Positions 35,919-64,000 of a DNA stretch of 64,000 nucleotides are shown here, one piece after another. This DNA comes from Marsupella aquatica (Eukaryota > Plantae > Marchantiophyta), in assembly GCA_973895155.1 (NCBI GenBank), contig OZ316893.1, positions 1,550,860 to 1,614,859 of the forward strand, in the 5' to 3' direction. Made by a program: the position numbers and the translations under genes. A model generated the notes under the pieces. It ran no database searches and had not been told where the DNA came from. It saw only the letters and a list, made by a program, of their open reading frames with translations. Positions within the stretch are counted from its first letter, which is position 1. Each line of letters begins with the position of its first letter.

Positions 35919-36917
35919 GTGGATCTTGAAGCACGAGGATCACCACGACGGTTTGAGGAGGAGAGAGAGGAGCAGGAGGAAGCGCATGTGACACCGGTAC
36001 AATCACCGGTGCAAGGAGTAGAGAGGATTGTGAAGGAAAAACAGATGGCATCTAGGTTCGGAGGTGTCAAGTTTGAGGTGGAGAAGTATGATGGGCGTAC
36101 GGACTACTTGCTCTGGGAGAAGCAAGTGAAAAGAGTTCTTCACGCTATGGGCCTAGATCATCTTCTCTCTACACGAGAGATGTACGATGATGAGGAGGAG
36201 ATTCCACTCAAAAGGTGGAGGCATGAACAAGTAATTGCAGTGAATACGGTGATGCTTTATTTGAAACCGCATATCATCAAGAAGTTGGATGACTACGCGG
36301 ATTGTGCATCTCTGTTCAAAGCCCTAAGGGAGAAGTACTATCGGGAGGATGCATCAGATCGATTGTACAAGAAGTCTCTCTTGATGAGCCTTAGGCTCAA
36401 AGAGGGGAACAAACTCCAGGATCACTTGGATGAATTTGATAGCCTAGTTGTTGATTTGTCTAATCTCGGTAAGGGCGTTGAAGAAGAGGACAAGGCCTTG
36501 CTTCTTCTCAACTCCTTACCCCCATCTTATCAGGGTTTGAAGCAGGTTCCCTTGTATAGAGACTTGAAGTCTATTTCATACTATGAGGTGGTAAGCTCTT
36601 TGCTGTCAGATGATGCACAGAAGAAGTTGGGTCAAGCCCAGACAGCATTGTCATCTGGTGATGCCTTGAATGTGAATCGTGGGAGATCACAACGGCGTCC
36701 CGAGCAGCGCACGAATGGCAAGGGACGAAGTAAATCTAGGACAAGATTTGCTTCAAGGGGGAAGTCCCAAGAGAGAAAGCCAGTAGTCTGCTGGAAGTGT
36801 CACAAGGTTGGTCACGTTAAGAGGGATTGTAAGGGTAAGGCAGTTGTATCTTCATCAGCCAATGTGGCTAGTGCTGATGGAGAAGTTGATTTACTCAATG
36901 ATGAGTATGTTTTATGA
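35919..36917 (+). CDS. gag: Copia Gag (likely ATG at 36045)
   Basis: KFEVEKYDG..DY.LW, LLLNSLPPSY, and zinc knuckle CWKCHKVGHVKRDC. Confidence 0.9.
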   Translation: MDLEARGSPRRFEEEREEQEEAHVTPVQSPVQGVERIVKEKQMASRFGGVKFEVEKYDGRTDYLLWEKQVKRVLHAMGLDHLLSTREMYDDEEEIPLKRWRHEQVIAVNTVMLYLKPHIIKKLDDYADCASLFKALREKYYREDASDRLYKKSLLMSLRLKEGNKLQDHLDEFDSLVVDLSNLGKGVEEEDKALLLLNSLPPSYQGLKQVPLYRDLKSISYYEVVSSLLSDDAQKKLGQAQTALSSGDALNVNRGRSQRRPEQRTNGKGRSKSRTRFASRGKSQERKPVVCWKCHKVGHVKRDCKGKAVVSSSANVASADGEVDLLNDEYVL

Positions 36918-39900: not shown

Positions 39901-40805
39901 CAGAGTTTAAGATGAAGGACCTAGGGCCAGCTAAGAGGATTTTGGGTATGGAGATCACTAGGGACTTGGAGGCTGGTAAGCTATGGTTGACACAAAGCAG
40001 TTATGCGAGGAAGGTAATTGCTAGGTTCAACATGGGGGATAGTAAGCCAGTAAGTACCCCTTTGGCTGCACACTTCAAATTGTCATCGGCTTTTTGTCCT
40101 ACAGATGCGACAGAGAAGGGGCAGATGTCAAAGGTTCCTTATGATAAGGCAGTGGAAAGTCTCATGTATTTAATGACTTGCACTAGACCTGATCTTGCCA
40201 TGGCTATGGGTAAGGTGAGCAGGTACATGTCAAATCCAGGGAAGGTACACTGGGAAGTAGTGAAGTGGATTATCAGGTACTTGAAGGGTACCGTGGATCA
40301 TGGTCTTTTATTTGATGCAAATGCAAAGAATGCAAGATGCTATGTAGATTCTGACTATGGACAATATCTGGACCGAAGGAGATCAACAACAGGGTACGTG
40401 TTCACACTTGGCGATGGATGCATAAGTTGGAGGTCTATTTTGCAGAAGTGTATTGCTCAGTCTACTACAGAAGCGGAGTATGTTGCAACAGCGGAAGCAG
40501 TGAAGGAAACAATTTGGTTGGATAGACTTATCACTGAAATGGGATTGCCACAAGGGAATGTGAAGCTCCATTGTGATAGTCAAAGTGTGCTCCACCTTGC
40601 TGTGAACCAGGTGATGGACAGTAGAGTGAAGCACATAGACGTCAGGTACCATTTTATCAGGCAGGCTGTGTCTGATAATTTGTTTGAACTAGTCAAGATA
40701 AACGGTAAACTCAACCCAGCTGACGCATTTACCAAAGTGATTCATTCGGAAAGTTTCTCTAGACATCGTGATGTGCTGCAGGTTTTGCAATTGCGTCACA
40801 AGTAA
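36918..40805 (+). pseudogene. pol: Copia pol (protease, GAG-pre-integrase, integrase, RT, RNase H), disrupted
   Basis: WILDCACSFH, LWHSRLGHMS, FIDDYSR..LRSDN..TPQQNGVA, YKARLVAKGFTQ, LYVDDML, and STTEAEY..CDSQS..KHID. Several frameshifts and stops plus a MITE insertion. Confidence 0.93.
37357..37994. mobile_element. 638-bp MITE / non-autonomous TIR element in copia pol
   Basis: 18-bp TIR GGCCTCATTCACAATTGG / CCAATTGTGAATGAGGCC, 4-bp TSD AACT, AT-rich interior. Removing it restores MTQLWHSRLGH. Confidence 0.92.
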
Positions 40806-44345: not shown

Positions 44346-45295
44346 CTATAGTACAATCTGTGACAATTGTCGAAGCGGCAAAAACGCCGAGGCAACACTG
44401 TCTACTGCAAGCTTCTCAGTGAAAGACTGAGGCTGACGGACCATCTCATCTATGATCAAAGCTGCAAATCCGATCATGGCCAGCCGACCATTCCATCGCT
44501 CAGCTCTGGCGTTGAATGGGCCCCAACCGCGTGCATCTGTGGATTCCCCATTGATGATCGGAACCACGGATGCGTAGGCGAAAATCTGCAACGCTACAAT
44601 GAAGAACGGGAGTCCCACCGCGCCTGGAGCAAAGAGCTGCTCCATCACAGTTAATCCAGACGCCTTCTCGGCCAGGAAGGCCCACGCGAATCCCAACATT
44701 GCCTGCATGTTCACAGCCATCACAATTTGAGGAAGACTGATTGAATTCTTCTCCAAAGGAATCGATTGACTGAGTACTACGAGAGAACAGAGTTCAGCTA
44801 TCCTGTGAAAATGTCAAATAGAGGACGCTATGCTCGGGCTGTCCAGGCCTCAACATTTCTAATGTGTCAATCATAGTGTCATATACGTACCAATCGCCCG
44901 TTGATGGTCTCGGGAGCGGCGCCATCGAATGCGAAAATGCTGCCCAGGCTTCTATCGCCAGTCTCGGGCCGCCTCTCGACTTCCGGGCGTGGGTAGAAGG
45001 AGCCGCTGCTGGGCACAGCTCCGAACACGGACTGCTTCTCAGACTGGTCTGTCTCCTGGTGACGGAGAATGTCCTCCTTGGTGATCTGCTTCTTGGTCAC
45101 CTTGTCCACGGCCTCACGCAATCCTGTGGGGCTCGAGCCATTCTCACTGGCTTGGCAGCGGAAGAGTGGCGCTCTCTTTGGCGCGACAGGCAACCTCACA
45201 ACTCCTCCCTTTAGTGCGTGGGCATTGCGGCCCAAAACTGTTGGAGCTGAGATCACTGCCATGGACGACTGCATGACTCCCACTGTTGCTGCCAT
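44346..45295 (-). CDS. ELIP: ELIP copy 4 (exons 44891-45295 and 44346-44702) with a late frameshift extending the C-terminus
   Basis: All three helices intact. A 1-bp loss at ~44432 replaces SPVFH* with PQSFTEKLAVDSVASAFLPLRQLSQIVL*. Confidence 0.85.
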
Positions 45296-46581
45296 GATGC
45301 TTGAATCGGTTGCTAGATCGATTGACAAGTTAAGCGAAGGCTACAGGGACGTATACCAAGTTCCTAGTTTCAATGCAGAGAGGGAACCGAGAAATAGAGC
45401 AAGTTAAAGTAAGGAAAAGTTTTGCACGAGCAGCTGAGCTGAGAGAGAAGAATTCTTGAGTGTATGTTTTCCGCAATGAATGGAAGCACAGATGATGCGA
45501 GACCGGTCTTCCGGGGGGCATTTATAGCAGCCGGTGGTGAATCTCGATCATCGATCAGAAGGTCCATGACATCAGTGGCAAATCATTTGGCAAGGACACC
45601 CGTCACTCAAAGAACATCTCCCAAGGGCTATTAATCTCGACCTTGTAATTTTTCCGGCTATCTCTCGATTTTTGATCGACAAGTCTTCGTCATGGATCTG
45701 AAACTACTCCTTGGATTAATTCTAACCAGGTGCGACAATTACAATAGAAGCCTTCTGCAAAGCATCTGGGGAGACATTCTGTGAGTTCTGTTCCCCATCT
45801 CCTTCTTCGAATAGCTGTCCTTCAATTTCCCAGGTGTCGCAAGAACGAACGAGATACGTTACCAAATGACGGACTAATATAATATAAAATGTTTGTGGCC
45901 GTTGAGGCAACTCCGATGAATCAATTTTCTGGAGAATTCAGGAGAGCAGATTGATGGTTTGGCGCTAAAGTTGCAATGATTTGGCATCATGTTCACTGAT
46001 CAGGTTCGAATCGAATTGAAAGCCACTGCTTAATTGCAGATTGTCCACCACCAGCCAGCTGTGTACGCGCATGAGTTGAGGCGCTTGACCGAAATCGGGC
46101 GTCGACTTGTTGGCAGAATTGTGTGCCATGTGTACAGCACGTAACGGGAGTTTGGAACACACTTGGCACAGTCTTCAGTTCAGTGATTTCGGTGGTGAGA
46201 AACTCGACACCCATGATTGTTGGTCTTGTTCGAACTTTGCTACCGACGAACGAAGGCTCGAATTCTTTCGCTCAGACTACATGAGCTCTGGATAACTGCA
46301 CACACTCCCGGGAAGAAGCCTCTTGTGTATAACTGGAGGGTTTGTACTAAGTGATAAGTACATACACTTGACATTTGCGTTTTTCACGAAAAAAATATTT
46401 TAATGTAATTTTTAATTAAGATGACAGTATTCCAACGATCTCCCCCTTCTGTTTCCTTCTCTTTGTTTCCTTCTCTTGAATGGGCGGCTTTGTCTTCTCC
46501 CCTTTTGGCGTTTTGCCTTTTGGCACTTTGATATATTTTAACAAATAACAAAGGTAGAGATGCCAACAGCTGCCGTAGCAC

Positions 46582-46812: not shown

Positions 46813-48672
46813 CACAAGACGGGTTGCACACTTATATTTATTAGTCCTTCCGACTATGCACTTAAAAAAAGTTCAAAATGGTAAGGAAAAGGGAAAAACT
46901 TGAAGCCTTGCAGTTACCCAGGGTTCAGGGTTACTCTAAGCTGCAACTGTTTTTACGATACTGATTGCAGGTGGTGCTCAACTGTAAGGGCTAAGTGACT
47001 AATAATTATTGTAATGGAAGGAACTAGAGCAATGTATTTTTCCTCTAATTTCACGCCAAGATCTAATTCATCCCAAACTGACCTAGCTCGCTGAGTGAGT
47101 AGTACTCTTCTTATTTTATGACCTTCTCCTTGACATGTTTTGAATCTTAGTTCTCCTTGAAATGGAGCTGAATTGACTGCTCTTGGGTAGTTGGAAATGG
47201 CTTAGGAATCTCTCCCACGTACTAGTCTAAGAGCCAATTTTCATTACAAACTTATATAGCTTTGAATTTCAAAAATCACCCAATCACTCATTATAGACTG
47301 TGCTGGCCTAGTCCAAAAGTTTTTGACAAACAAATTTAGACTTTGAATTTCTCCTTGACATGAGGCGAAATTAGCCGTCCATGGAGTTGTTAGGATTGTT
47401 TGTTATGATTAAGAAGTTTATAGGGCTATCTGTAACCCAAACGAGGTGGGAAAAAATGGCACCCAAATAAGACAAACAATTAAAGGCAGCGACAGCCAAC
47501 TGACGAAAAAACCAAGTTAGGGGGGACCCTCAACTTGAAAATATGTAGTTGAAGCCATATTAGTATTGTAGTTCTGAACTTTCGTGGCCGGAAATTGTAA
47601 ATCATCATTTTTGGAATTCTATTTTTTTTCAGATTTGTTACTGGTCTCAATCGTCACTTTCAATCTAGAAAAGGCATCAAATGAGTTTTCAGACTGTAAA
47701 GAGTTTTATCCGATTTCAATTATACTGGAAATAGTAAGTGAGTGCTAAAAGTAAGACTGGTTTCAGGATTGATTTAGTTAAGTAGCCAATCTCACATTTT
47801 CTTCCTTGTGTACAACAATGTCTGTAGGAATCCGAGTGGGCAAGGCTTCAATTTGGTGAAAGAGTTTGGGAAAATGCACTATCAAACCCATAAACACAAT
47901 GTGTATACACTAGTAGTGGAGTGCAATGTGTATGATTCCAATAGTAATGTCCTAGACAATTGTCAAAGATAAGTTTTGTTGAGTGGAAGTGTTGGCAAGA
48001 TAAGTGAGCAGAGAATTGATAAATTGGCCAGCAATTAGATCTTATATAGTGTGCCAGCTCACAGAAGAGTGATGCGTTGGGTAGAGTCATGGATTAGTGT
48101 GGTTTTTAAAACATATTCTGCTATTGGAGAAAATCTCATCAAAATCCAAATGATCAATAAATCTTCCACCAGAATTGTATTTCATAACACAGAGCATGTA
48201 AATTATTCATAACACAGAGATATTCATAACCCTCATAGTCAAAAATTTAATTCACAATCAGAGTAAATGATTAACAGCAAGATTAAAGCACGATTTCATA
48301 GAATATATTTTAGATTGAAGCATGACATTTCAATCAAATAGAATCAAAAACACAAGTTATCATGTGACAGGTATAAAAACAGAAGGGAAGTTTCAAATTT
48401 ACTTCAATTTCGTCGGCCAGTATAGCTGACTACAAATTGCATATACACGGCTTATTCAATGAATGACGAGATTTCGCCAGCAGCTAGAGACGAGCTTTTC
48501 GTAAACAATCTTCTCTCTCATTAACTATCGAGAAGACTGTTTTGATCGATATTGTACAATGCAGATCAGACTGACCACTATTGGTACAGTTTGATTGAGA
48601 ATCTATCGTGCAATCTGTAAAATCTGTACACAAGGGCAAAAGGCTGAGTAGTTTTGTCGACTGCTAAACTCC

Positions 48673-49645
48673 TCAGTGAAAGACTGGGGACTGACGAACC
48701 ATCTCATCTACGATCAAAGCCGCAAATCCAATCATGGCCAAACGACCGTTCCATCGCTCAGCTCTGGCGTTGAATGGGCCCCAGCTGCGTGCATCGGTGG
48801 ATTCCCCATTCATGATGGGAACCACGGATGCGTAGGCGAAGATCTGCACCATTGCAACGAAGAACGGGAGTCCGACCGCGCCGGGAGCGAAGAGCTGCTC
48901 CATCACAGTCAATCCAGACGCCTTCTCAGCCACGAAAGCCCACACGAATCCCAACATTGCCTGCAGGGTCACAGCCATCACATTTGAACACTGATTAGAT
49001 TTCTGTTCGAAAGGATTCAATAACCAATCTGAGTACAGCTCGTTGAGACAGTGGTAGCTCAGTCTGTGTGCGGACGGAACTGTCCTCTAACATTTCTTAT
49101 ATTAATTCGCCTGAAGTGCAGTTTCTAGAATTGCTTCCGTTGCTATCATTGAGCTATTATTACAAGTTCCGTTCCTGAAAATTCAAGATCATACTCACTG
49201 CAGCAACAACAAGCCAACTCTCGTGGTCTTATATACTTACCAATCGCCCGTTGATGGTCTCGGGAGCGGCGCCATCGAATGCGAAAATGCTGCCAAAGCT
49301 CCTGTCGCCGGTCTCGGGCCGCCTCTCGACTTCCGGGCGTGGGTAGAAGGAGCCGCTGCTGGGCACAGCTCCGAACACGGACTGTTTCTCAGACTGGTCT
49401 GTCTCCTGATGACGGAGAATTTCCTCCTTGGTGAGCGGCTTCTTGGTTACCTTGTCCACAGCCTCTCGCAATCCTGTGGGGCTCGGGCCATTCTCACTGG
49501 CTTGGCAGCGGAAGAGTGGCGCTCTCTTTGGCGCGACAGGCAATCTCACGACTGCTCCCCTCAGTGCGTGGGCGCTGCGGCCCAGAACTGCTGGAGCTGA
49601 GACCACTGCAATGGACGACTGCATGACTCCCACAGTTGATGCCAT
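48673..49645 (-). CDS. ELIP: ELIP copy 5, intact, 230 aa (exons 49241-49645 and 48673-48960); most divergent flanks
   Basis: Complete transit peptide plus three-helix LHC motifs, phase-0 GT..AG intron, TGA stop, TATA box retained. Confidence 0.94.
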
Positions 49646-51870
49646 GGTGCTTTCGGTTGTGATATCGATGTGAAGCTGAGAAGTAGGCTACAGGTATACC
49701 AAGTTTCTAGTGTCAAAGCAGACAGGGACGCGAAGGAATGAATGAAGATTGACCTGGAAACCTTTTAGAAAGATCTTCAGTGTATGCTTTCAACAGTGGA
49801 CGCTGCACGAATGATATGCAGAAGAGTTGTCCAGGGAATTTATAACTGCCGGAGTCAAGGAGTTGGGGCGGGGCCTGATCTCGAAAGGTCGATGTCGTTA
49901 GTGCTAAATAACCTTTTTGAAAGGCAGTGCATGCATGGACACCCGTCACTCAAAGAACATCACTACGGGGGGTAGCTACATGCACCTTCTAATTTTTCAG
50001 TCTCACTTACAGAAGTCTCGAGTTCCACCTCCTTTCAATTTCCACTTTCCCAGATCTCGAAAGACGGAATGAACGAGCTATCGTGAATGAGATATGGGTG
50101 AACGAGATTAAAGGCTAACATAAAATAAAGTTAAATTCTGATATTTGAAAGAACTCCGATGAATCCATTTTCTGCAAATTCACTAGACTTGTCGGGGGAT
50201 CAAATTGATGGTTGAGCGCTAAACCTGCAAAGAGTTTAGCATCATGATCAAGTTCGAATCAGATCGGAATCCGCTCGTTAATCCCTCAAACTCGACCACC
50301 AGCCAGCTGTGCACTGCGCATGTTGAGTTCAAGGCTGTGACCAAACTCTACCTGTTCAGGGTCGAGTTGTTGGCAGAGGTCAGTGACATGTGTACAGTGA
50401 CCAAACTCTACATGTTCTAGCACACTTGGCACCGTCTTCAGTTCAGTCAATTCGGTGGTGAGGAACTAGACAGCCATGATTGTGATCGATGGAGCAGTTT
50501 GGGCCATTGCGCCGAGAATCAAGCTCAGTGATTTCGGTGGTGAGGAACACGACAGCCATAATTGTGATCGATGGAGCGGCTTGGGCCTTTTGTGCCCAGA
50601 AACAAAATTAACTAATTAAGGCTATGCAGAGTTGCAGACCAGAGCACTACGTCGTAATAGGAGCAAACGCATAACGATTTTGTATGCATGTTTGCACGTG
50701 GTGTTCAACGGCATAGGCGACGTCGTCCGCGTATGCGCTCGACACCTTCGCGAGGAGGTCGTCAAGGACGTATGTTGCATGATTGTGCCTCGTACTTGCG
50801 CACAACAAAAGACTTTATGGGCCCTGATCATCAAAATGGGGTCGCCCAGATATCAAAATAGGGTTGCATATATAGGGGGATCCCGGGAACTGCACATCAA
50901 AATATGACTTGTGAACCTAACAAACAATTCACACCACCTATCATGATAGCAATTACTGAGGTTAAGAGGCAAATCTAAAGCCCAAATAAACTCAATATTC
51001 ACTAACAATGTTCACACCCGGAAGCTTAGTAAAGGGCAAATCTAAAGCACAAGTAAGTTCAATGTTCACAAAACAATTCACACCAAGGAGTGTTGTGCGC
51101 ATACATATCGCTACACAACATACATCGCTTGTCACATACATCCAGACATAGTCACACTGTCGCATCACAAATACAAGAGAATGGAATACAAGTGGAACTC
51201 ATGTCCACACATGTCCAAAACCCACAATAATCTCCATACAATCGGCACAACGATCTCGGTCAACAATACCCCATCGATCCCGCACCGATCCGATCACACA
51301 CGTATGTCAAGCCAACGCACCTTGCACTACTCAAGGAATCCACGTTACACAAGCGGAGCTCACAGCCACCATAGCCACACTCAAGCTCCTCTCTCTCCAA
51401 GGCTCAACATTGAAAGATGACCTTTCAATGCCTCACAAGTGAGAAGTACCCTCTCACACAAACCTGACAGAACCTTATCGGCTCCAATAGCACTCATACC
51501 AAACGTACATACTCTAATAGCACGATATACTACTACACTACTCAGAATGGTGTGACAGCTGTCGTGCGCATACATATCGCTACACAACATACATCGCTTG
51601 TCACATACATCCAGACATAGTCACACTGCCACATCACAAATACAAGAGAATGGAATACAAGTGGAACTCATGTCCACATATGTCCAAAACCCACAATCGC
51701 CCCCCTAGCTGGGAGTAAGGTCCCCTAACTCTAGCTAGCCATGAGTTCTACAAGGTTGATATACACCTTTTTAGGTGTGAAGATCAGGAGGCCGGGTGCA
51801 AGTGAGCCCCATCGATCACCTACCTGCAATCCATATCTGCCAAGAGAACACAAATGATAACTAGTCGGTT

Positions 51871-53451
51871 TCACCGACACTGAGGACACAACCATGATCC
51901 ACTAGGAATCACCTGCAATGGTGGTGTCAAACATGACATGTGCCATCCTCTAGAACACTTATCACAAATCAACATAGTAGCTGCTCCCTGAGCAGATCCA
52001 CACAACATACATTTCAAGCCAGCACGAACATGTGCCAAGCTTGGATCTACTGTACCATCAATGTTGGGAAGGTGACATGGTGCACAGTTGCGCACATGAT
52101 CCTTCCAAACCATACCATTGCGTCCCTCCAACATCAGGACACCAGAAGGCAACACTTCATGCACACGTAAGATTGTTCGGCCTGCGGTCACATCAAGTGT
52201 CGTGGGTGCTGTCTGCTGCAAATAAACATAATCACCAGGATGAAATCGTCGAATGCTTGCACGGTAACCTCCTCCACGAATAGTGGCATACCTCAAAGTA
52301 TCACGATGTTGGGCAATGGCAAGGTTGTCAAAAGCCATGGGCATCACTCTCTGAAATACCCGTGCTCTCTCTGAACACACCTTGACCCAAACATCAGGAT
52401 CATCCAAGTTCACAACTGGTGCAGCATGACGACGAATAGCTGCTGGCAAATCTGGCTCTCTACCATAGAGCAAAAAGTAGGGTGAGAAGGATGCAAGTGA
52501 TGCTTGCCGACTGAAACGGTAGCCCATAACTAACCAAGGTAGCTGGAGATCCCAATCTCCCAGATGACCAACCTGCAAGCCATACTTACGCAATCCTCTC
52601 TTCACAGTTTGCACAACTCTCTCAGCTAATCCATCTGCCTCAGGATGATCACGAGAGGTAGTGCGATGATCAATCAGAGCTTGTTCACACAAACTCTCAA
52701 ACTCTCCACGGAACTCAGTTCCCTGATCAGTCAACACCTCAGTTGGTGCTCCAAAATGACTGAGTACACGATCCAAAAATGTAGCAGCAACTCCTCCACT
52801 GGCTTTATCTGGCAACGCCACTAGCTCAATCCACTTGGAGAAGTGCTCCACCATGACCAAAACATACCGATTATGACGTTGGGTAAGAGGTAATGGACCA
52901 GCAAAATCCAAACTCCAACGATATCCCAAACCCATGATCGGTAACGGGTGCAACTGGGGAGTGGGAGCATTAAATGATGCTCTCACTCTGTCACATACCA
53001 CACACTTAGCTATCAACTGCTGGACATGAGTGTGCATACCACGCCACCAATACTGTGTCTGTAGCAAGCTGTAAGTGCGCTTCACACCAAAGTGACCCAA
53101 CTCCTCGTGCGCATGTCGCACCAAATGTACTCGTTGTGATGGTTTTGGTACCACCAACATCCTACCATCATGCAGTACTCTCAAAAGATGGTTTCCCTCC
53201 CATCGAAACCTCTTGGCTCTCTGTAGAACCCTGTCACGTTCCTTGGCATCAACACTGCCAACAATAGAACTATTGCGCAGATATTCCAACACTCTCACAT
53301 CATTGTGAATATCTTGCTGTCCAGAAGTTACTTCACCAACATCCACATCTGAAGACTCATCATCCACTCCATCCAATGAGGTAGAGTCCACAGATCCACT
53401 GTATGCTGGCACCCAACAAAGAAAGGCAGATGCATGCCATCCTGGCACCAT
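51871..53451 (-). CDS. Gypsy integrase (HHCC plus DDE core) with a C-terminal PHD finger
   Basis: AHEELGHFG..CVVC, WSLDFAGP, LTDQGTEF, HPEADGLAER; C-terminus CMLC..LICDKCSRGWHMSCLTPPL..IP.GSWLCPQC (C4HC3). Confidence 0.93.
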   Translation of the reverse strand: MVPGWHASAFLCWVPAYSGSVDSTSLDGVDDESSDVDVGEVTSGQQDIHNDVRVLEYLRNSSIVGSVDAKERDRVLQRAKRFRWEGNHLLRVLHDGRMLVVPKPSQRVHLVRHAHEELGHFGVKRTYSLLQTQYWWRGMHTHVQQLIAKCVVCDRVRASFNAPTPQLHPLPIMGLGYRWSLDFAGPLPLTQRHNRYVLVMVEHFSKWIELVALPDKASGGVAATFLDRVLSHFGAPTEVLTDQGTEFRGEFESLCEQALIDHRTTSRDHPEADGLAERVVQTVKRGLRKYGLQVGHLGDWDLQLPWLVMGYRFSRQASLASFSPYFLLYGREPDLPAAIRRHAAPVVNLDDPDVWVKVCSERARVFQRVMPMAFDNLAIAQHRDTLRYATIRGGGYRASIRRFHPGDYVYLQQTAPTTLDVTAGRTILRVHEVLPSGVLMLEGRNGMVWKDHVRNCAPCHLPNIDGTVDPSLAHVRAGLKCMLCGSAQGAATMLICDKCSRGWHMSCLTPPLQVIPSGSWLCPQCR

Positions 53452-53493
53452 CTCCCTATCTGACTCATCATGCCATCTGGCTCCAGTCTCATC

Positions 53494-54951
53494 CTACTGA
53501 CTGGTACATGGATTGCGGCTTAATCCATCTGCATCCAAGTTCACTTTTCCAGGCCTATGCACCACCTGGAAATCATACTCCTGTAACAACAATGCCCATC
53601 GTGCAAGCTTCCCTGTAAGCTTGTCAGACTCCATTAACCACTTAAGAGGCTGATGATCAGTGATCAAGGTGAAGGGGTTACCAAACAAGTAGCAACGAAA
53701 GTGTGAAACAGCCCATACTACTGCCAAACACTCTCCCTCATAAGAGCTATACTTAGCCTCTGCTGAATTGTTTGATCTACTGGCATAAGCCACAACAAAC
53801 TCATTCCCCTCATCATCCTTCTGAGTCAGCACTGCTCCAAGTCCTACTCCACTCCAATCAGTGTGTAGCTGAAATGGTCTGCCTGAAATGGGTCTTCTCA
53901 AAATAGGGGATGATGCCAACCTTTGCTTCAACTCCTGAAAGGCATGCTCCTGGTCATCACCCCAAATCCATTCCTGATCCAACTTAGTGAGTATGGTCAA
54001 AGGTTTAGCAAGCTGGCTAAATCCTTTAACATACCTCCTGTAGTAGCTCGCCAATCCCAAGAATGCACGAACTCTACTCACATCAGTAGGACAAGGAATC
54101 TGTGTAATGGCCTCCACTTTAGTCTGCTGTACACCCAATCCCCCTGGGTATATGGTGTGGCCCAAATACTCAATCTGGTCTTGGAAGAACTTACACTTGC
54201 TAGGATGGAGCTTCAACCCATGTGCTCTCAATCTCTCCAACATAGTCTGCAAGTGCTGCTGATGTTCTTCCACAGTAGAAGAATAGACCAAAATATCATC
54301 AATATAACATCTGACAAAATCCAAACCTGCAAGGATTCGATCCATGACTCTCTGGAACTCAGCTGGTGCATTCTTCAACCCAAATGGTAAGAATAACCAT
54401 TGATACAAACGATCTTTGCCATAAGAATCAATCCCCCACAATGCTGTCTTGGACCTGTCAGCATGCCTAATTGGAAGCTGATGGTATCCTGCCCTCAGAT
54501 CCAATGAACTGAAAACCTTTGCATGCCCCACAACATCAAAGATCTCCTCAGGTGTGGGCATGGCATATCGATCAGATTTTGTCTAGCGATTAATAGATCT
54601 GTAATCACCACACATGCGCCTATCTGTGTAATTGCCATGCACATCCTTCTTGGCTGGCATCACTGTGGCAGATGCATACTCCCCATATGAAATCTCCACC
54701 AATCCAGCCTCCAACAAATCTTGAGTTCTGCTTTGAATCAGAGCTCTCTCCATGTCACTATAACGGTATGGCCTACGAAAGATTGGCGCATCACTAGCCA
54801 ATTCAATCTGAATACCAGGGCCCTTCAATGTCCCCAAATCCTTCATGCTGAATGCAAAACAATTCCAATAACTCTTCAGGAATCGATGCATGCGACGTCT
54901 CTCCTCCCCTGTTAACTTAGGGCCAAGCTGTGGTTCCCAACTCTCCACCAA
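53494..54951 (-). pseudogene. Gypsy reverse transcriptase plus RNase H (in-frame TAGs at 54583 and 53494)
   Basis: RRMCGDYR, LDLRAGYHQ, PFGLKNAP, YIDDIL, LHTDWS, YEGECLA, TDHQPL, DADGLSR. Confidence 0.95.
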
Positions 54952-55038
54952 ATCCCTAATATCTCTTTGTAGGGTAGAAGAGATAGCCGATGATTGCTAT
55001 TTAGCAGTAGATTGAGCAGTCCCTTCCTGCTCAACAAT

Positions 55039-56140
55039 CTATCCAGCCGCCAATCCTGTCATAGGTCCATGGACTGTCTGCTCGCCCCCAGCTGTGGTCA
55101 ATACTGTCTCAGTGGACCGCAAGCTCACCAAGGGACAATCAGTAATTCCGGCAGAGCGCATCCGCAATTGTTCAGCTACTCCCAAGCTGATAATCCAAGT
55201 CAAACAATTCAAATCCATTGCTTGACCAAGAACCTGGCGCCGCAAACCCTCTGACACAGAGGCAACTGCAGTGGTGCCAGTCAAAAATCCCATAGCACGC
55301 TCTCTCTCATCAGCAGTAGGCTCCACTAACTGCTGGAGAGTTGTGTCCCATACAAGTTCAGGGCCACCTGCTCTGAATGCATATGAAGCAGAGTGGCTTA
55401 CAAGAGTGGGTAATGCACAACGTGGGCACCCAACTGCATTGACCATTGCCAATGGAGGTCTATTAGGTTGGGTCACACCCTGTGCACGACACCCTGGATC
55501 CAAAATATCATCCACCACTAAGGCTGGTGAGCGTGGAATGCTGTCAAATGCGCGCTTCAGCACCTCACATGGGATCAAATTAGTCCACCACAAGCGTGGA
55601 CGATGTGCACGAGAACCCACACGTGCAGCATCCAATAACACAGCAGGTCCAATCCAAGACCTCACCTGGTGAACACTAGCAACAATCCGACTACGATCAT
55701 CACCTAACAATGGCATATTCTCCAAAATGTATGCTGGAGACTATGTCTGATGTAGCTGGAGATGACGTAGCACCCGTAACATCTCCCAAAACAATGCAGA
55801 GCGTGGATCATGAAGTCCATGCCCAACGCCAGCTCTAGATTGGCCCTGACATGGCCAACCAGCAATCACCAAATCAATGGGGCCAACACGATGCAGATGA
55901 TCCGCCCCCAGCAATGAAATATCAGCAGGTAGTGCATGCTGATAACCACGAACAGCATCCACTGGCAGTAACTATGGATATCTATCCACCAACATAGCCA
56001 CATGTCGCAATGAGACCCTCCGTGTTGTCTCATCTATCTCCACATACAAATAACGACGCACAGGAATTCCTGCCTGAAGAACAGCAGCCAATCCAGTGCT
56101 AATCCCACCAAAAAGATCCAACAAACAAATACCCTCCGGT
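55039..56140 (-). pseudogene. C5-cytosine DNA methyltransferase domain (DNMT3-like) within gypsy pol
   Basis: Motifs in canonical order: I LLDLFGGIST, II VEID, IV DLVIAGWPCQGQS, VI ILENM, VIII AHRPRLWWTN, IX ERERAMGF, X RRQVLGQAM. Same frame as RT, broken only by TAGs at 55972 and 55741. Confidence 0.9.
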
Positions 56141-56689
56141 GGATACTGCCAAGCAATAGGAGTGGTATCCAATGGTGAAAGAGTCACAGGTCCATCTGCA
56201 AGAGACTGCTCTGCTCCTGACTGTGGTGTAAAAGCATGACGCCATGCATCATGTACCAATCGTGCTGCTGCCTGTGGCAAGGCCTGTGCAGTGCCCCACA
56301 CTGGTGGCACAACACTGCCAACAGGTAATCCTCGCATGATGTGCTCCTCATGAGACTCCTCCAATGGTGGAACATCGGCTGCATGCGCATTACCCTCAAT
56401 CAAATCATCCAGTCTAGCAATTACACCACTGAATGCTGCCAAAGACAATGGTGTGGATTTAGGGCCTCCCACAGGTCCACTAAATCTCACTGGCAATTTG
56501 CTCAATCGAGCATCTTCTGACTGCCAATCAGGTCTACATGACACTGATTCCTCCCAAAAATCAAGAATAAATCCCATGGGGTAGAGCACTGTACATCCCA
56601 CCAACACATCATATGACTCTACCTTAGTCAGAATAGCTCGCGCCTGTATCTGTGAGCTATCTGTGGTATGACCTTCCTGAATCCTCAAA

Positions 56690-58981
56690 TCAAGTGGTCT
56701 CCTGGTGATATGCTGTGTAGGTGTAGGTCCCCCCAATTGAAGTCTGAATGGGAAAGGGACAATCCTCCAAATCCTCTGGATGCAATCCCAATCCACGTAT
56801 GGCAGACTTCCCCAACATCAAGGGCTGAGCACCAGTATCCAGTAACACTCTCTCTGGCTGGTATACTGCTCCAGAAGGCCCAACTAATCGGAAGATACCA
56901 CTCCGATTATCCAATGACACAACACTAGGTTTAAACCTAGTCCTCTCAAATGCAGGGCGTGCTGGTAAATCCACCAACCTCGCTGCTGCTGCATGCCATG
57001 TCTCACTAGTAGCAGTAGGTGGCATGGTCTTCATTGCATCAACACTACAAGTTGCTTCTGCATGGGAAGCAACCACTGGAGTGTCCTCACAGAGTGTAGC
57101 TGCCAATCTGAACACTTCTGCAGGACCAACTCCCAAGTTCAGCATGTCTGTCGCTGAAAATAATGGGGTGCGTACTATGGCAGTAGCCGCCCCCAGCAAG
57201 GTACATGTCATCCCTGCTGCATCACTACCTGATTCTGCCAACTTACCCACATCAGGGTTTGTCCGAACCGGGTTCATAGAGGCAGTCTGAATTGTCTCTG
57301 ACAATGTAAAAGACTGAGGAAACTTTGTCTGCCGACGTGCATCCCCCCTTTGTGGATCTAACTCCACTACTGCTCCTCGGGGCTCAAGAGCTTTGGCTGC
57401 CCCACGTGTCAAAGCTGCTGATGCATCAATATGTGCAGTGCCACACATGAATCCCATGGTGGCAAGGTCTCCATCAGCTCCATAAGATGTGGAAGGACCA
57501 TGGGATGTGGAAGGTCCATAGGATGTAGATGCCCCATCACCAGAATTAGGTCTCACCTGGGAACTAGCCATGGCAGCTAGTTGTTGCTCCAATTGAGCAA
57601 TCTTAGCATCCTTTGGATCTATGGTTATAGCAGGGGCAGCGTCACCTCCCTGTCTCCCTGCATGTGGCATGCCATGACCACGTCCACCACCTCTACCTCC
57701 TCTTCCCTGATCATGTGTACGGGATCCTCCTCTCCGTAACTCAGGGTGGAGTGAGAAACACCTATCCTTGGTGTGTCCAGGAGCTCCACAATGATCACAC
57801 TGTCGCTGATCAGGCGCTGATGCTCCCCCTGATCCTCTATAATCTGGACAATATCTCTGTGCATGATCCCCACCACAGGTCCAACATCCTGACTGTTGTC
57901 CAGCATAAGAGGGCACAGGTCTCTGGCTGGTAGACTCTCGTGCAATAGGCTTCTCCCTCTGGCTCTTCTGTGCAGTAGGCTGTGGTGTGGATGTAGATGC
58001 AGCTTTTGGTGCTTCCTTGGCAAATCCGGAAGTCACCACCTTCTCATTCACCATATTGAGCTCAATGCGCTCAGAAAGGGTGAAAACAACTGCTAATGTG
58101 GGATCTGCATCCCTAAGCAGAGTGACATCTCTCACTCTGCGTCGCAATTCTCTGTCTAGAATTGCATACCAAAACTGGACTGCCTGAGCCTCTGTCACTC
58201 CCTTGGTGACAGTGATCAATCTGCGCATACGTGTGTATGCCTCACGTAGGCTCTCTCCAGTCTTGCGTTGGAACTCTTGAAGACCCTTCAACTTATCAGT
58301 TCTCACACCCTGATAGTTCTGCTTCAGTACCTCAAAGAATTCCACCACAGGATTAAATGTTGGCGCAACTCCAGTTCCTGTCACAATCACACCGGTAAGA
58401 GTAGTGGTGGATGCTGCTGGAGTGCTGCTGGTGGATGGTGTGCCACTCTGGCTAGTGCTGCTAGAAGAAGCAGCAGCTGTGGCAATGGGTTGGGCAGCCG
58501 CACTAGTGCCATAGGTGATGGACACGTAATTAGGCAACCAATGCTGCCTCCATGCCTCAATCTCAACCAAATGAGCCTTCCGAAACTCATGGTAGTCATC
58601 CATGGGTGGCCCCTCCAAATGCTGGAATAATCCCTTCCATGCCATGAAAGGGGTAAACAACGTGACGTTACGCAATGTCTGCATATCGCACCACGTATCA
58701 AACTCCTGGATGAAGTCATCCAGATCAATTGTGCCAACTGCACCAGAGTATCGTCGTGGGCCCTTTGTAGCCCCGTACATCTCGTCCATATCCCACAACA
58801 AAGGTGCAACCACCTGATGATGAGGAGAACTGGTCACTGAGTCCTCATCAGAATCACTGTTTGAAGCTGCACTGCTAACTGCTACCAATGCCGCTGGCCG
58901 AAACTGTGCCCCACTCCGAGTGAAACCGGTCCGTCGTCCATCGGGTAATCCAGCAACACCAGAAGAATCTGTGGTGACCAA
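56690..58981 (-). CDS. gag: Gypsy Gag (two CCHC knuckles) plus start of the aspartic protease
   Basis: FQRKTGESLREAY, CWTCGGDHAQRYC, CDHCGAPGHTKDRC, VLLDTGAQ. A frameshift near 56700 leads into the 55972-56796 frame. Confidence 0.9.
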   Translation of the reverse strand: MVTTDSSGVAGLPDGRRTGFTRSGAQFRPAALVAVSSAASNSDSDEDSVTSSPHHQVVAPLLWDMDEMYGATKGPRRYSGAVGTIDLDDFIQEFDTWCDMQTLRNVTLFTPFMAWKGLFQHLEGPPMDDYHEFRKAHLVEIEAWRQHWLPNYVSITYGTSAAAQPIATAAASSSSTSQSGTPSTSSTPAASTTTLTGVIVTGTGVAPTFNPVVEFFEVLKQNYQGVRTDKLKGLQEFQRKTGESLREAYTRMRRLITVTKGVTEAQAVQFWYAILDRELRRRVRDVTLLRDADPTLAVVFTLSERIELNMVNEKVVTSGFAKEAPKAASTSTPQPTAQKSQREKPIARESTSQRPVPSYAGQQSGCWTCGGDHAQRYCPDYRGSGGASAPDQRQCDHCGAPGHTKDRCFSLHPELRRGGSRTHDQGRGGRGGGRGHGMPHAGRQGGDAAPAITIDPKDAKIAQLEQQLAAMASSQVRPNSGDGASTSYGPSTSHGPSTSYGADGDLATMGFMCGTAHIDASAALTRGAAKALEPRGAVVELDPQRGDARRQTKFPQSFTLSETIQTASMNPVRTNPDVGKLAESGSDAAGMTCTLLGAATAIVRTPLFSATDMLNLGVGPAEVFRLAATLCEDTPVVASHAEATCSVDAMKTMPPTATSETWHAAAARLVDLPARPAFERTRFKPSVVSLDNRSGIFRLVGPSGAVYQPERVLLDTGAQPLMLGKSAIRGLGLHPEDLEDCPFPIQTSIGGTYTYTAYHQETT

Positions 58982-59939
58982 CCCTAACCTAATCTATGTG
59001 CTAACCCTAAGGGCAATCTATCCCTGTCAGCACCACAAGCACTCAGTGTTGGGCATCACTCCAACATCACCAAGAGAGAAATACATAGCACACTAGAATG
59101 TCTAGTTGCAAACCCGGATCACTCCTATGGAATCAAGCGCCCACATGAAACTAACATGGTGCATAAACAGGAAACATGTGTGAAGAGGATCCAGAAACAA
59201 GAATGGATACCATTCAACTCTCCACACAAAAGCAAATGCAAATCAATATGACAATGTGCATAAGGTTCAAGGAAGAGCCTTCATAATAGGCTTCACAATG
59301 GCACTCCAATGTTGTAGATGAGAACCAAGGCAAAATTGGTTCAATCTGTGAGTCTAGGTGGACTCAGAAGTATCAAAAACCCTAAAACAGCATCTGATTT
59401 GGCCTAGAATAGGCCTCTAAACAAATTGGGAAGTGTATAAAGCCCCCTGTCGCTTGAATCTAAACAACAAGTTGTCAAAGCTTGTGTGTACACAAGGTGG
59501 GATGAGAACTTGCCAGTTAAGCGCTCACGGCTGGGAATAGCCCTGGGATGGGTGACCTCCTCGCGCTCGACCTTGTGCCTCCCCTCGCGCTCACGGCCCG
59601 AAATAGCCCCGGGATGGGTGACCTCGACCTCGCGCCTGCCTGCGCTCGCGATGGGTGACTTCGCGCTCACGGTTGGGAGCACTTTCGGGATGGGTGACCT
59701 CGTGCGCCTCACACCTGACCCCAAAAATGACTACTTCCTTCACGAAAAGCTCCCGAAAACTGTCAATTTCCTTCATGAAAAACGCAGCCCTTCCACAGAA
59801 CTGGCAGCAGCTTGATTCAACACCTTTGACCCTCGTTTCTTTCACTGAAACGATGATACCGTCGCACGGGGCATTGGCAGCTCCGTTCCTTCAGGAAAAG
59901 AGCCGTCGCTTCACCTGCGCCTTGCCAACATCGTCCAAC

Positions 59940-60030
59940 AATAGCCGGCAATCAGATCTGAAGCCCCACAATAGCCGACAATCAGATCTGAAGCCTCATA
60001 GTAGCCGGCAATCGGATCTGAAGCCTCACG
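59940..60030. repeat. 30-bp tandem repeat x3 in the gypsy 5' leader
   Basis: ATAGCCG(G/A)CAATC(A/G)GATCTGAAGCC(C/T)CA repeated. Confidence 0.85.
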
Positions 60031-62133
60031 GATCGACTTCCACTGTCCAACATCTACTCAACATTCGCTTTCCTCCACGAATCATCAATCGACCTCCAAC
60101 TCAAAACCTGTCACCAATCACAGATCTGTACATCGATCGGGAAGCAAGCCGATCGGACAACAACGATACAGGTCAAGATACCAACGATCTGTTCGATAAC
60201 AACACACGATCCGAGCTACCACGAACCGTCGACAACTCAATCAATCGAACTTCTGTCCGCACAGTCCGTACAACAGATTTCGAATGTGATCTTTCAATGT
60301 AATCTCCATACAATCGGCACAACGATCTCGGTCAACAATACCCCATCGATCCCGCACCGATCCGATCACACACGTATGTCAAGCCAACGCACCTTGCACT
60401 ACTCAAGGAATCCACGTTACACAAGCGGAGCTCACAGCCACCATAGCCACACTCAAGCTCCTCTCTCTCCAAGGCTCAACATTGAACGATGACCTTTCAA
60501 TGCCTCACAAGTGAGAAGTACCCTCTCACACAAACCTGACAGAACCTTATCGGCTCCAATAGCACTCATACCAAACGTACATACTCTAATAGCACGATAT
60601 ACTACTACACTACTCAGAATGGTGTGACAGGAGGTTAAAGGGCCAATTCACAGGTAAGTTCAATTTTCACAAAATGGATAACAAATTTTTATAGGATTTC
60701 TTGAGATTCTAGAGCATTGATACTTTGCAAAATGACTATACTACTTCCAAAAATGTTGTTGCAAAAGCTTATTTTTTCTATGAAGCATTGCTCTTATTAT
60801 ACGATTGTAGTAAATTTTCTATTGTAAGTCAAAGTGAAATTTGAATTTGCATGAGCATTGTTGTGGAATATGATTTTTCAAAGACCATTACTTTCAAAGA
60901 AGGTTTTGACTAATTTTAATGCTACAATGTTACCTGAATTTATTCTTTTGGAGTATTGTTGATGTTGATGAATCTTAGTTTTCAAAGAGTTACAAAGAGA
61001 GCTTTGAGTAATTTTTCTGTTGCAGAGCTACCAGAAATTATATTCTAAGTCATATGACGTTGCTCTTGTTACAAGGAGTCAGTGCTTTGAGTACTTTGTT
61101 GTTGCGGAGCTATGGGAGATTTCTAATGTGGACCTTCAATGAATCCATTCCATTCACTGACATTCTCAATTTGATTTTAGGTGCTCATAATGTTCTTAGA
61201 GTGACGGAAACATAGGTAAACAATTAATAAGATAAATTTTCATCCATTTGCAGTTGGATTGTCTCATGATTAATAGGTGAAATATGGTCTGTCCCCTGTC
61301 ACTTCTTGGGGATAGTTGGAGACAACTTAGCATTCTATCCAGGCAGTAGTTTAGTGATCTATTACACCACAAGCCCTATGCCAATGCGTTGCACTGTGCA
61401 AGGAGGGCCGGTCCATAGGGAGTCGGGCTGGGGCATTTATGGGGCTAGGGTTGCACATTTCTTCCGGCAAGGGTCATGAAAAACAACTAATCAAATCCAA
61501 CGGCTTTGGATCTCCCGCCCAGGAGCTTTTTTGTATTGAGATGAAGAACAAAAAAAGCAGGATCCCTTATTTTTGTTGTAAATATATGTCACATTTGAAT
61601 TTGATGTGTAATTATTGGGATGCGAAACAATGTCCCCAAAGTCCTGTAAAGCCAAGAACCTTGGAGCGAGTTCCATTGCAGCGTTTATTAGGGAGTCTCA
61701 ATATTGTGACGGCCTGGGTTTTGGCCACCAGTGACAACTCCTTCACGGCCATGGGTAAACAAGGGATGGGCATCTACACAAGGTAGGGTAGTCCACACCA
61801 GCTGCCCGCCGGTGTAGTCCTGTGATTGTCACTTTGTAGTCTATGTTGGCATGGGTGTTGAGGCTGTCCGTCAAACATCAAACACATGTCTCTCAAAAAA
61901 ATGTGCCCAGAATATTTATTAGGGTCCCTTTTATAGGCACTCCTACATGTCTGTCAAGTACGTCATCCACAGTATTGAGACCCCTATAAGTACGGCACAA
62001 GGGTGGAGGCATAATTATGCATACAGTCATCTCTCTGTAAGTGCAAAATACATAAGTGCAGAGCCAGTATAATTGCAAGGTGTCCCATTCTTTTCCAGAC
62101 TCTTTCCTCACAATCTTGCACTTTTTGTAAGTG

Positions 62134-62540
62134 CAATAAAGTTCTGCACTAAACTACAAATATATAAATGCAAACCCTCTATAAGTGTTTATGAGCACAT
62201 TTCCTTGGCAGCAATAAAGTTCTGCAGTAAACTACACTAAACTACAAATATATAAATGCAAACCCTCTATAAGTGTTTATGAGCACATTTCCTTGGCAGC
62301 AATAAAGTTCTGCAGTAAACTACACTAAACTATAAATATATAAATGCAAACCCTCTATAAGTGTTTATGAGCACATTTCCTTGGCAGCAATAAAGTTCTG
62401 CACTAAACTACAAATATATAAATGCCAACCCTCTAAGTGTTTATGAGCACATTTCCTTGGCAGCAATAAAGTTCTGCACTAAACTACAAATATATAAATG
62501 CCAAACCTCTATAAGTGTTTATGAGCACATTTCCTTGGCA
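62134..62540. repeat. Tandem repeat, ~76-88 bp x5
   Basis: CAATAAAGTTCTGCA(C/G)TAAACTACA..ATATATAAATGC..CTCTATAAGTGTTTATGAGCACATTTCCTTGGCA repeated. Confidence 0.9.
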
Positions 62541-64000
62541 AGTCCTTGGACGTACAGTAATTGTCATTATCACTTAGCGTCAAAATTGCATTTATGAGGT
62601 AAGGGATCACCTTTAGGTCATAGATGTAAATTTTACAAGGAACTCAGCAGAATGTGGACTGACAAACGGGGCCATTGCACTTGGACACACTACACTCTTG
62701 TGGACGTAAACTTTCCTGAAGTTTTTCCATTGTATGTGTGTACATGAAGCAACTGAACCTTGGGCCAGCTTGGCCTGGGAATTATGAAAATTGAATGAGG
62801 AATAGAGTAAAGTCCAAGTGGCAACAATGTAGGATCAAACTTTTCTTATGTAAGAAGCTGAACTGAATCTTAGTATAAAAGTGTCAACTGAAGCCTACTC
62901 TTAAGGGCCTAGGTCTGAACCCTCTAGACCTTAACTCACAATAGAGACAAAACTGATAATGAGGTTCAATAAGGTTCAATAGTGCGTTCTCTAGGATTCT
63001 TCCTTGTAGCATATAGACTGGTTTCTTCTCAGGATCTGTTCTGGGGATCACTTTTACCCTGCTGGCCGTCCCATCGTTTGGAGATGAAGGATTTATGAGA
63101 TATGGAGAATTTCCATTTTCCTTGCGATGAATCTTTCTTGTGGATGGAGCACATCAGATTATCAGGTCCCCCCTTCTAGTCAGGCCTACTGAATAGTCTG
63201 GTCTATACTCTCGACAGTGGCTGGGGCACCCCATGTGAGCGGTGAGGATATAGCCCTCTGTCCTTTTCTCGGGGCCTTTGGTATGTCGCAGCCTGAGGCA
63301 TCAGGCTCAGAATATGGTTGGGGATTCGGGCTCCGGTAGCTCTCCATTCATGCCATTGGGAAGGAATTCGGTTTCAGACATATGATGGGATCATCCTGGT
63401 GTTCCCTTCCTCTTTTGGGCAGGTTTTCGGTCGCTGACGTTGACTGGCAGATTCTTGTTGTCCCCATCACCTTGTGGGGAAGGTCCTAGGTTTCTGGCTT
63501 TTGTTGGAGGGTCCGTAGCGTCTCTTTCAACTCCAATCTGGCATTGCTGCGGGAGCCTTTTGGCTGCCTTATCAAGAATTGCAGGCAAGTGCAGGGTCTT
63601 GGCTGCAGGGTGTATTCATCGATTCGATTATGTGCCGATTTGCTCTTCATCACGCACCAGGGTTACCTTCTTTGACCCATGATCATTCCTCCTTGCTTTG
63701 TTCCGGCTTTGGCAAGTCTGTTGACTAAGTGGGGAGACTGCAGCAACTCTCAGTCCAGTCGCGGCAGACCTCAATGTAGTGGCGGCATTCGTTCAGCGTG
63801 TTTTGGGGACCAGCAGGGTATGGTCTTGGCCATCTTTGGGACAGGTTCTAGGGTAGTCTCCTGTTTTGTGCAGCCAGGATCCATCCAGTTAGAATAGCAC
63901 TTTTGCGGTTCCTATGGTCACTTTAGGTTTTTCGTCTACAGGGCAATCAATCCCCTCTTTCCGTCTCCCTCTCCCCAGGCGGATTGGACTGTATTGCCCT

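Follow-up and report, generated by a model that had tools for sequence, protein, structure and literature searches.

What does a retrotransposon gain from a DNA methyltransferase of its own? Retrotransposons bearing a cytosine methyltransferase have been described from algae and protists. The question is raised again by a 64,000-nucleotide stretch of the liverwort Marsupella aquatica (contig OZ316893.1, positions 1,550,860 to 1,614,859; the whole stretch is called the window below), whose minus strand carries at 51091-60629 a Ty3/Gypsy element of 9.5 kb with a 4-bp target duplication and a C5 cytosine methyltransferase domain. A first-pass annotation, made from the sequence alone, had described this domain as a complete DNMT3-like enzyme lying inside pol, between protease and reverse transcriptase (RT), and packaged with pol. 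The kind of enzyme and its neighbours were borne out by the present analysis; the assignment to pol was not. In clades A and B of the family the domain closes the Gag-protease open reading frame (ORF), and RT, RNase H, integrase and a PHD finger lie behind a fixed stop codon that parts them from the methyltransferase.

The minus-strand frame running from 56817 to 51871 encodes, by ORF reading and domain scan, the C-terminal half of the protease, the C5-methyltransferase, RT, RNase H, integrase and PHD finger in this order. The methyltransferase motifs, numbered I to X on the customary scheme, stand in linear order on the minus strand: I (LFGGISTG, 56115-56092), II (YVEID, 56046-56032), IV (GWPCQ, 55860-55846), VI (ENM, 55722-55714), VIII (AHRPR, 55608-55594), IX (ERERAMGF, 55308-55285) and X (RQVLGQAMD, 55239-55213). 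Translated with X at its stops, the domain matches the profile PF00145 with E 1.3e-9 and 38.3 bits against a curated cut-off of 22. Its best PDB sequence matches are DNMT3A (E 4e-12) and then DNMT3C and DNMT3B, with DRM2 at only 1e-3. A structure search with the AlphaFold model of the domain (pLDDT 79.8, pTM 0.82) returned DNMT3A/B at E ~1e-17 and only DNMT3 structures in the listed top ranks. The non-permuted motif order and the nearness of DNMT3A/B in both sequence and modelled fold identify the domain as DNMT3-like and not of the DRM type. The catalytic Cys (motif IV), Glu (VI) and Arg pair (VIII) are present in the window domain; transfer of methyl groups to cytosine in DNA is predicted for the family. 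Completeness holds for the family and fails for the window copy, whose domain contains stops at 55972-55974 and 55741-55743. Domain scans found no targeting module on the methyltransferase itself; the PHD finger sits on the integrase.

The end of the domain had been set at 55039, which is a stop private to this copy. The frame of the family ends at 54997-54999, where the window reads AAA-TAG-CAA-TCA and the methyltransferase is in phase with RT across the stop. From 54991 to 55006 no alternative letter appears at a 2% threshold in the three deeply covered of four public runs, in a check on run contigs, which drop rare variants; positions 54985-54990 and 55007-55011 vary. The closest protein, P0122, ends at the same residue as the window frame, 72 amino acids after motif X against 71 in the window, and the difference of one matches an indel at 55048. 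Proteins from Marchantia, Calypogeia and metagenomes end 88-143 residues after motif X. Out of 81 loci surveyed, 64 contain both the DNMT domain and the RT N-terminus and form, together with the window, 65 rows. A stop lies 8-16 codons before RT in 32/32 rows of clade A and 4/4 rows of clade B, and none of them has a sense codon there. The codon following the stop is CAA or CAG in 34 of these 36 rows. The contexts in clade A are TAG-CAA-CCC (18), TAA-CAA-CCC (10) and, once each, TAG-CAA-CCA, TAG-CAA-CTC, TAG-TAA-CCC and TAG-CAA-TCA (the window); those in clade B are TAG-CAG-TTA (two), TAG-CAA-TCA (one) and TAG-TAG-CCA (one). The exact sequence CAR-YYA follows the stop in 5/36 rows (the window and loci L006, L028, L029 and L111), and in-frame CARYYA occurs as background at 6/2373 and 8/2417 codons. 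L028 is the clearest case, having 2417 codons with a single stop: 1369 codons of Gag-protease-DNMT, the stop, and 1047 codons of RT-RNase H-integrase-PHD. L111 is organised in the same way. Decay as the origin of the stop at 54997 was ruled out by its fixation across runs and across clades A and B. Four gene models of Marchantia and Sphagnum (P0126, P0130, P0133 and P0159) join DNMT to RT with part of the linker missing, likely because false introns were predicted over the stop.

UAG-CAR-YYA is the type I (tobamovirus) read-through motif, and two adenosines 5' of the stop stimulate read-through, according to the text of PMC3542737. The arrangement resembles that of type I tobamoviruses and of gammaretroviral gag-pol, where an in-frame UAG parts an abundant upstream protein from the polymerase; the element in the window has the exact UAG-CAR-YYA (PMC3542737). 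It differs from read-through of the gammaretroviral type in that the stop stands after the protease and the methyltransferase, not between Gag and protease. Read-through between gag and pol has been called very rare in long terminal repeat (LTR) elements (PMC3441728). Judged by its context and by this analogy, the conserved stop is likely read through. Four folds of the sequence 3' of the stop revealed no consistent RNA structure.

The coding features of the window copy are as follows.

56743-58789, minus strand: Gag and the N-terminal half of the aspartic protease (first Met at 58789; LDTGA at 56842-56828)
57886-57848 and 57799-57758, minus strand: two CCHC-like knuckles in Gag
56730-56742, minus strand: one-base frameshift within the protease, near 56737; close relatives including P0122 are in frame, and it is not a family feature
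55153-56130, minus strand: DNMT3-like C5 cytosine methyltransferase domain, motifs I-X linear, with the two stops of this copy named above
55000-55152, minus strand: linker closing the Gag-protease-DNMT frame, with the private stop at 55039-55041
54991-55001, minus strand: family-fixed stop (54997-54999) in the read-through context AA-TAG-CAA-TCA
53497-54996, minus strand: RT (YIDD at 54306-54295) and RNase H, with a private stop at 54583-54585
52021-53493, minus strand: linker and integrase (HHCC zinc domain; DDE core 52914-52612), with a private stop at 53494-53496 just upstream
51874-52020, minus strand: C-terminal PHD finger (PF00628, E 1.2e-10)

The Asp_protease_2 and Retrotrans_gag profile matches in the Gag-protease ORF both stay under their cut-offs. 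The window copy is broken by five private stops (55972, 55741, 55039, 54583 and 53494) and by the frameshift near 56737. At 55741 and 55039 the frame is open in further copies from four public runs, as seen among the 40 of 347 difference rows listed, and P0122 is open at 55972. A programmed frameshift between Gag and the rest was ruled out, as the shift lies inside the protease and relatives are in frame. An assembly artefact or nested insertion was likewise excluded by the protease-DNMT-RT order in 64/81 loci and by the intact target duplications on both sides.

For the domain, 219 relatives of about its own length and 73 longer ones were found. The occurrence in land plants, which the first-pass annotation had suspected, is confirmed by named relatives from Marchantia polymorpha (many loci, up to 71-77%), Calypogeia fissa, Riccia sorocarpa and three Sphagnum species; a further one comes from Mesostigma viride. 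In one public run (X1) 5821 contigs lie over 1.95 kb of the element, a sign that its copies are numerous and divergent. Searching with a profile yielded 512 clusters within E 1e-30, which may include host DNMT3s; the top 150 are all below 3e-69. Two layouts occur, with DNMT either between protease and RT or between RNase H and integrase. The second is found in 47 proteins with the full order RT-RNase H-DNMT-integrase-PHD (for example P0164, P0165 and P0298). Named members include a Closterium protein with DNMT before RT and a pol of the chlorophyte Scenedesmus with DNMT between RNase H and integrase. In the RT tree (FastTree, without outgroup, eight near-duplicate rows omitted) a branch with support 98 separates the 17 DNMT-before-RT rows from 54 rows with DNMT after RNase H. 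No named Klebsormidium protein was found among the domain relatives searched; relatives from Closterium and Mesostigma turned up.

The first-pass annotation had listed grounds on which its idea would fall: absence of the domain from other members, lack of purifying selection, or a catalytically dead consensus. Instead, the domain occurs throughout the members just described, and its catalytic residues are intact in most of them. In an alignment of 104 rows, which excludes sequences with two or more stops or with short coverage, 98 rows retain the Cys of motif IV, 103 the Glu of motif VI, and 96 and 101 the two Arg of motif VIII; the Pro preceding the catalytic Cys is Glu in 12/104 rows. (The DNMT tree of these rows is a quick tree of element sequences only, also without outgroup.) The catalytic residues and the S-adenosylmethionine (SAM)-binding motif are conserved across sequences ~35-50% identical. 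The ratio of nonsynonymous to synonymous substitution (dN/dS, Nei-Gojobori) of the domain is 0.135 for L028/L029 (dS 0.25), 0.085-0.10 against L111, 0.14-0.16 for the window against clade A and 0.25 for the window against L028; among nine between-lineage pairs of clades A and B with finite dS it is 0.085-0.19 in eight and 0.25 in one. RT gives 0.04-0.11 for such pairs. Judged from these codon comparisons, the methyltransferase of the family is under purifying selection. The search for stop-free copies, also proposed in the first-pass annotation, found 8 open among 70 full-length domains (69 loci and the window), L067 being counted on a slightly shortened match.

A viral or bacterial source of the domain was rejected, the IMG/VR matches being weak and partial (best E 1e-13 and 3e-13). 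L111, a whole contig of a Synechococcales isolate assembly, is an intact element of the family and the sole strong match in genome contigs. A second family member, P0021, is filed under an Obscuribacterales metagenome-assembled genome. Both are most likely plant or algal contamination of bacterial assemblies.

The element has the order protease-RT-RNase H-integrase with a DDE core, TG...CA ends and a target duplication within 4-6 bp, as is expected of Ty3/Gypsy. It does not have two complete identical terminal LTRs; the layout is instead split into A-ORFs-B-A-B. DIRS-class elements use a tyrosine recombinase, for which no match was found among the seven element ORFs scanned; an rve integrase is present, which keeps the element out of DIRS/Ngaro. 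The PHD-bearing integrase and the split LTRs noticed at first pass are thus real. The repeats and associated signals of the window copy are these.

60630-60633: target-site duplication on the 5' side of the element, GGAG on the plus strand
60300-60629, minus strand: repeat A1, 5' end of the element, starting with TGTCA (331-nt match to A2, 99.7%); likely holds promoter, R and U5
60479-60490, minus strand: 12-nt stretch in mid-A complementary to the primer-binding site (PBS), the predicted self-primer and RNA 5' end; one mismatch in A1, perfect in A2 at 51407-51418
60289-60300, minus strand: predicted PBS, directly after A1, complementary to mid-A
51698-51706, minus strand: polypurine tract, directly before B1
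51560-51697, minus strand: repeat B1, 138 nt, ending with GACA
51554-51563, minus strand: palindrome GACA-GC-TGTC at the B1/A2 junction, with halves matching the two ends of the element
51228-51557, minus strand: repeat A2, near-identical to A1
51091-51228, minus strand: repeat B2, 3' end of the element, ending with CA (97.1% to B1)
51087-51090: target-site duplication on the 3' side of the element, GGAG on the plus strand

The same layout is found in L038, L043, L046, L053 and L061, and its 3' half in L050, L060 and L062. The 4-bp duplication of six complete elements is exact in four, near in one and absent in one. A1 and A2 of the window differ at 1/331 nt and B1 and B2 at 4/138, despite the five private stops and the frameshift in the ORFs. 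Given such near-identical repeats next to decayed ORFs, the copy may have moved in trans when it was already defective.

In 8/8 elements the PBS matches the complement of mid-A over 11-17 nt, with controls reaching at most 9 nt (47-172 control 20-mers each), and the matching sequences differ between clades. A Tf1-like self-priming, with the mid-A 12-mer as the 5' end of the RNA, is predicted from these matches. Tf1/Sushi and Tcn1 likewise have a PBS complementary to a stretch inside the LTR and use no tRNA; in difference from the present family they have ordinary LTRs, no methyltransferase is reported in the texts of these sources, and Tcn1 belongs to a chromovirus clade (PMC7175516, PMC6317226). 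The predicted self-primer also forms the 3' side of a hairpin, the PBS sequence being repeated on the 5' side (window A2 51407-51429; L028 ~8825-8855), and this hairpin may mask the primer in the 3' repeat. A G-run or G-rich tract precedes B in all three clades. With the PBS after A1 and the polypurine tract before B1, the working LTR would be B+A.

At the A2/B2 junction the end before the PBS is joined bluntly to the start after the polypurine tract, as at a 2-LTR circle junction; the junction is clean in the window and lies within a few bases in other elements. In each of the three clades the B1/A2 junction reads GACA-NN-TGTC, some copies having TATC; the two halves of this palindrome correspond to the ends as inserted. 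In foamy virus, too, a DDE integrase cleaves a palindrome in circular cDNA at the 2-LTR circle junction; there the palindrome is the end-to-end junction, whereas here it is inside the LTR, so that cutting would permute the LTR (text of PMC1180852). Other copies end after a single B (L014, L065, L012, L020, L040, L056, L073 and L077), two of them, L014 and L065, with a 4-bp duplication around A-ORFs-B. They may be 1-LTR-circle insertions, products of B-B recombination or assembly collapses.

The PHD finger has no Trp two residues before the His in any of 88 family members (0/88), and its nearest solved relatives are those of CHD4, DPF3, ATXR5, KDM5, PHF21A and UHRF1. These are readers of H3 tails unmethylated at K4, and the finger of the element is predicted from this kinship to bind the same mark. 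The same state of H3 is recognised by the ADD domain of animal DNMT3.

The kind of element, including the split repeats which the first-pass annotation had counted as new, has been known since 2018 from KnitGypsy-Dnmt3 of Klebsormidium nitens. According to the text of PMC5890265 it has the Gypsy domain set, an intron-less, non-rearranged DNMT3-like domain, DIRS-like repeats A1-ORFs-B-A2-B, and purifying selection, for which the yardstick was Ka/Ks < 0.2 on the domain. It differs in being algal and in having DNMT in the RT-RNase H ORF, whereas in the land plants DNMT ends the Gag-protease ORF in clades A and B; clade C, where one ORF spans DNMT, RT and RNase H, is like KnitGypsy-Dnmt3. The text of PMC5890265 makes no mention of a PHD finger, read-through or self-priming for this element, though its figures and main supplement may overlap. 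SymbioDIRS-Dnmt3 of Symbiodinium is another retroelement-borne DNMT3 and methylates CG de novo in yeast; it is DIRS-class, from a dinoflagellate, and described in the same text as an independent capture (PMC5890265). The DAM-LTRs/EpiLTRs likewise combine a DNA methyltransferase and a histone reader in a Ty3/Gypsy element, differing in that their enzyme methylates adenine, a DNMT4-sister cytosine enzyme being present in addition or not, and the reader is a chromodomain; the text of that preprint sets them apart from streptophyte Gypsy-DNMT3 and has 0 occurrences of Marchantia or moss (bioRxiv 10.64898/2026.05.21.726589). PHD and Marchantia have 0 occurrences in the REXdb main text (PMC6317226). 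Later papers place Gypsy-DNMT3 elements in "streptophytes" and leave land plants unnamed in the parts of them that treat these elements (bioRxiv 10.64898/2026.05.21.726589; PMC12344493; PMC11244446; PMC11982613). The literature searched, which did not cover subscription journals, yielded nothing on the family in bryophytes or chlorophytes, and nothing on its stop or its priming. The features not found there are the position in the Gag frame with the fixed stop, the anatomy of priming and junctions, and the sister group with DNMT between RNase H and integrase.

How these parts may work together can be put as follows, and we give this reading an even chance: the bryophyte Gypsy family makes Gag-protease-DNMT in bulk and Pol by read-through, primes itself, joins its cDNA end to end, and has the methyltransferase mark the new cDNA. 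It builds on the architecture, the fixed stop, the catalytic residues intact in the family, purifying selection, the repeat layout and the 4-bp duplications, as observed above. Most ribosomes would end at UAG-CAA-UCA and yield Gag-protease-DNMT, and a minority would read on, adding RT, RNase H, integrase and PHD. The methyltransferase would then far outnumber RT in the particle, where the protease would free it. The RNA would start in mid-A and prime its own reverse transcription on the PBS as in Tf1, the plus strand starting from the polypurine tract. The cDNA ends would join bluntly (the A2/B2 junction); the DDE integrase would cut GACA-NN-TGTC of the left LTR, lose two bases and insert A-ORFs-B-A-B with a 4-bp duplication. 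Before or during integration the methyltransferase would mark the naked double-stranded cDNA, probably at CG, and the PHD finger would direct the copy to chromatin lacking H3K4 methylation. On arrival the new copy would thereby resemble old methylated host repeat DNA.

Several observations weigh against this reading. Clade C has no fixed stop (20/29 rows are open for >30 codons), and seven of its rows share a stop at a position that is sense in others; its open frame means that not every member needs the methyltransferase supplied at the level of Gag. The Sphagnum-like subfamily has CAA-CCC after the stop and not CAR-YYA, TAA stands instead of TAG in 10/31 loci, and an ATG two codons after the stop also fits re-initiation. 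As to selection, dS is near saturation in most between-lineage pairs, and recently decayed copy pairs give 0.15-0.59. Most clade A loci are near-copies from few metagenomes, the 36 rows of clades A and B being perhaps 4-5 independent lineages. The domain of KnitGypsy-Dnmt3 was without activity in yeast, a result which its authors call inconclusive (text of PMC5890265). CpG has an observed-to-expected ratio of 0.35 within the element and 0.63 elsewhere in the window (CHG 1.23 and 0.94), a depletion that is compatible with CG methylation and does not separate methylation by the element from that by the host. Finally, the mirror product A-B-A-ORFs-B is seen in 0/32 5' ends (~26 distinct insertions), although a symmetric 2-LTR circle predicts it. 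A symmetric circle cut at random is ruled out by this absence; the integration route must be asymmetric, and the proposed step leaves the asymmetry unexplained. A route of the Ngaro type, with ends templated from RNA, may be followed instead.

It is rather unlikely that the stop is a true end and that RT-RNase H-integrase-PHD is made by re-initiation or from a spliced or shorter RNA, in which case the methyltransferase would still travel with Gag. Such a separate Pol would suit the ATG found two codons past the stop in 30/31 clade A loci, in the context CAA-CCC, but an early ATG is lacking in L006, L028, L111 and the window (where the first Met lies ~37 codons in, within the RT N-terminus); moreover, CAR is kept in 34/36 rows and the two frames are always in phase in undamaged copies. 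Less probable still is that the abundant methyltransferase acts chiefly on chromosomal DNA, damping copies of its own family or competitors. Supply at the level of Gag would exceed the need of one cDNA per particle, and self-limitation is raised as an idea in the text of PMC5890265. However, the enzyme has no targeting module of its own, the PHD finger being on the integrase, and an effect in trans would be hard to keep under selection at the level of the element.

We regard it as quite improbable that the methyltransferase is a part of integration, where its mark on the CpG of the palindrome's CACGACA arm would restrict cutting to only one of the two sites. This would account for the pairing of split repeats with a methyltransferase, found here, in KnitGypsy-Dnmt3 and in SymbioDIRS-Dnmt3, for only one of the two mirror products being seen, and for the retention of CACGACA in all three clades despite CpG depletion. 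But some copies have CATGACA at the site (L038), possibly by later decay, and sequence preference of the integrase alone could conserve the arm. Most improbable is a role as a nucleic-acid-binding or RNA-modifying module without DNA methylation: KnitGypsy-Dnmt3 gave none in yeast (text of PMC5890265), yet the catalytic Cys, Glu, both Arg and the SAM-binding motif are conserved at ~35-50% identity, and the DNA-type ENV glutamate is kept in 103/104 rows.

A wider form of the reading with bulk Gag-protease-DNMT and marked cDNA is possible, though well short of probable. An ancient green-lineage Gypsy clade, from chlorophytes to bryophytes, would have an active DNMT3 as a core part and follow a route not described for DDE integrases, in which self-primed cDNA is closed end to end into a circle and then cut at a palindrome inside it. 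A leaky stop would, in land plants, shift the methyltransferase from Pol to Gag stoichiometry, filling the particle with an enzyme that pre-methylates the cDNA and may mark which palindrome is to be cut.

The rest of the window contains five similar repeats (586-1625, 5782-6994, 13585-14524, 44379-45322 and 48637-49687), of which 48637-49687 encodes a chlorophyll a/b-binding, early light-induced protein (ELIP)-like product with nearest named relatives in Calypogeia (67%), Riccia and Marchantia; the five are likely an ELIP gene array. At 35904-40802 on the plus strand gag-, integrase- and RT-like words in Copia order suggest by eye a second LTR element, and three ORFs at 29365-31484 on the plus strand resemble, and may be, pieces of a CACTA/En-Spm-type transposase. 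A 24-nt tandem array (18389-18610) has an inverted copy at 19366-19564, ~850 nt apart; the two are possibly the ends of a foldback or miniature inverted-repeat (MITE)-like element. Arrays of ~300-nt and 88-nt units lie at 8650-11684 and 62144-62566.

For the family, the conserved stop suggests that the elements control the amount of methyltransferase relative to RT, which would constrain its role. The anatomy of the repeats offers a concrete account of how DIRS-like split repeats may arise from an element with an integrase. Annotations of Marchantia and Sphagnum list ORFs of these elements as DNA methyltransferase genes, and host DNMT3 genes can be overcounted in this way. Since multi-copy families are present in Marchantia, a tractable model, the question of what the enzyme does can be tested in a land plant.

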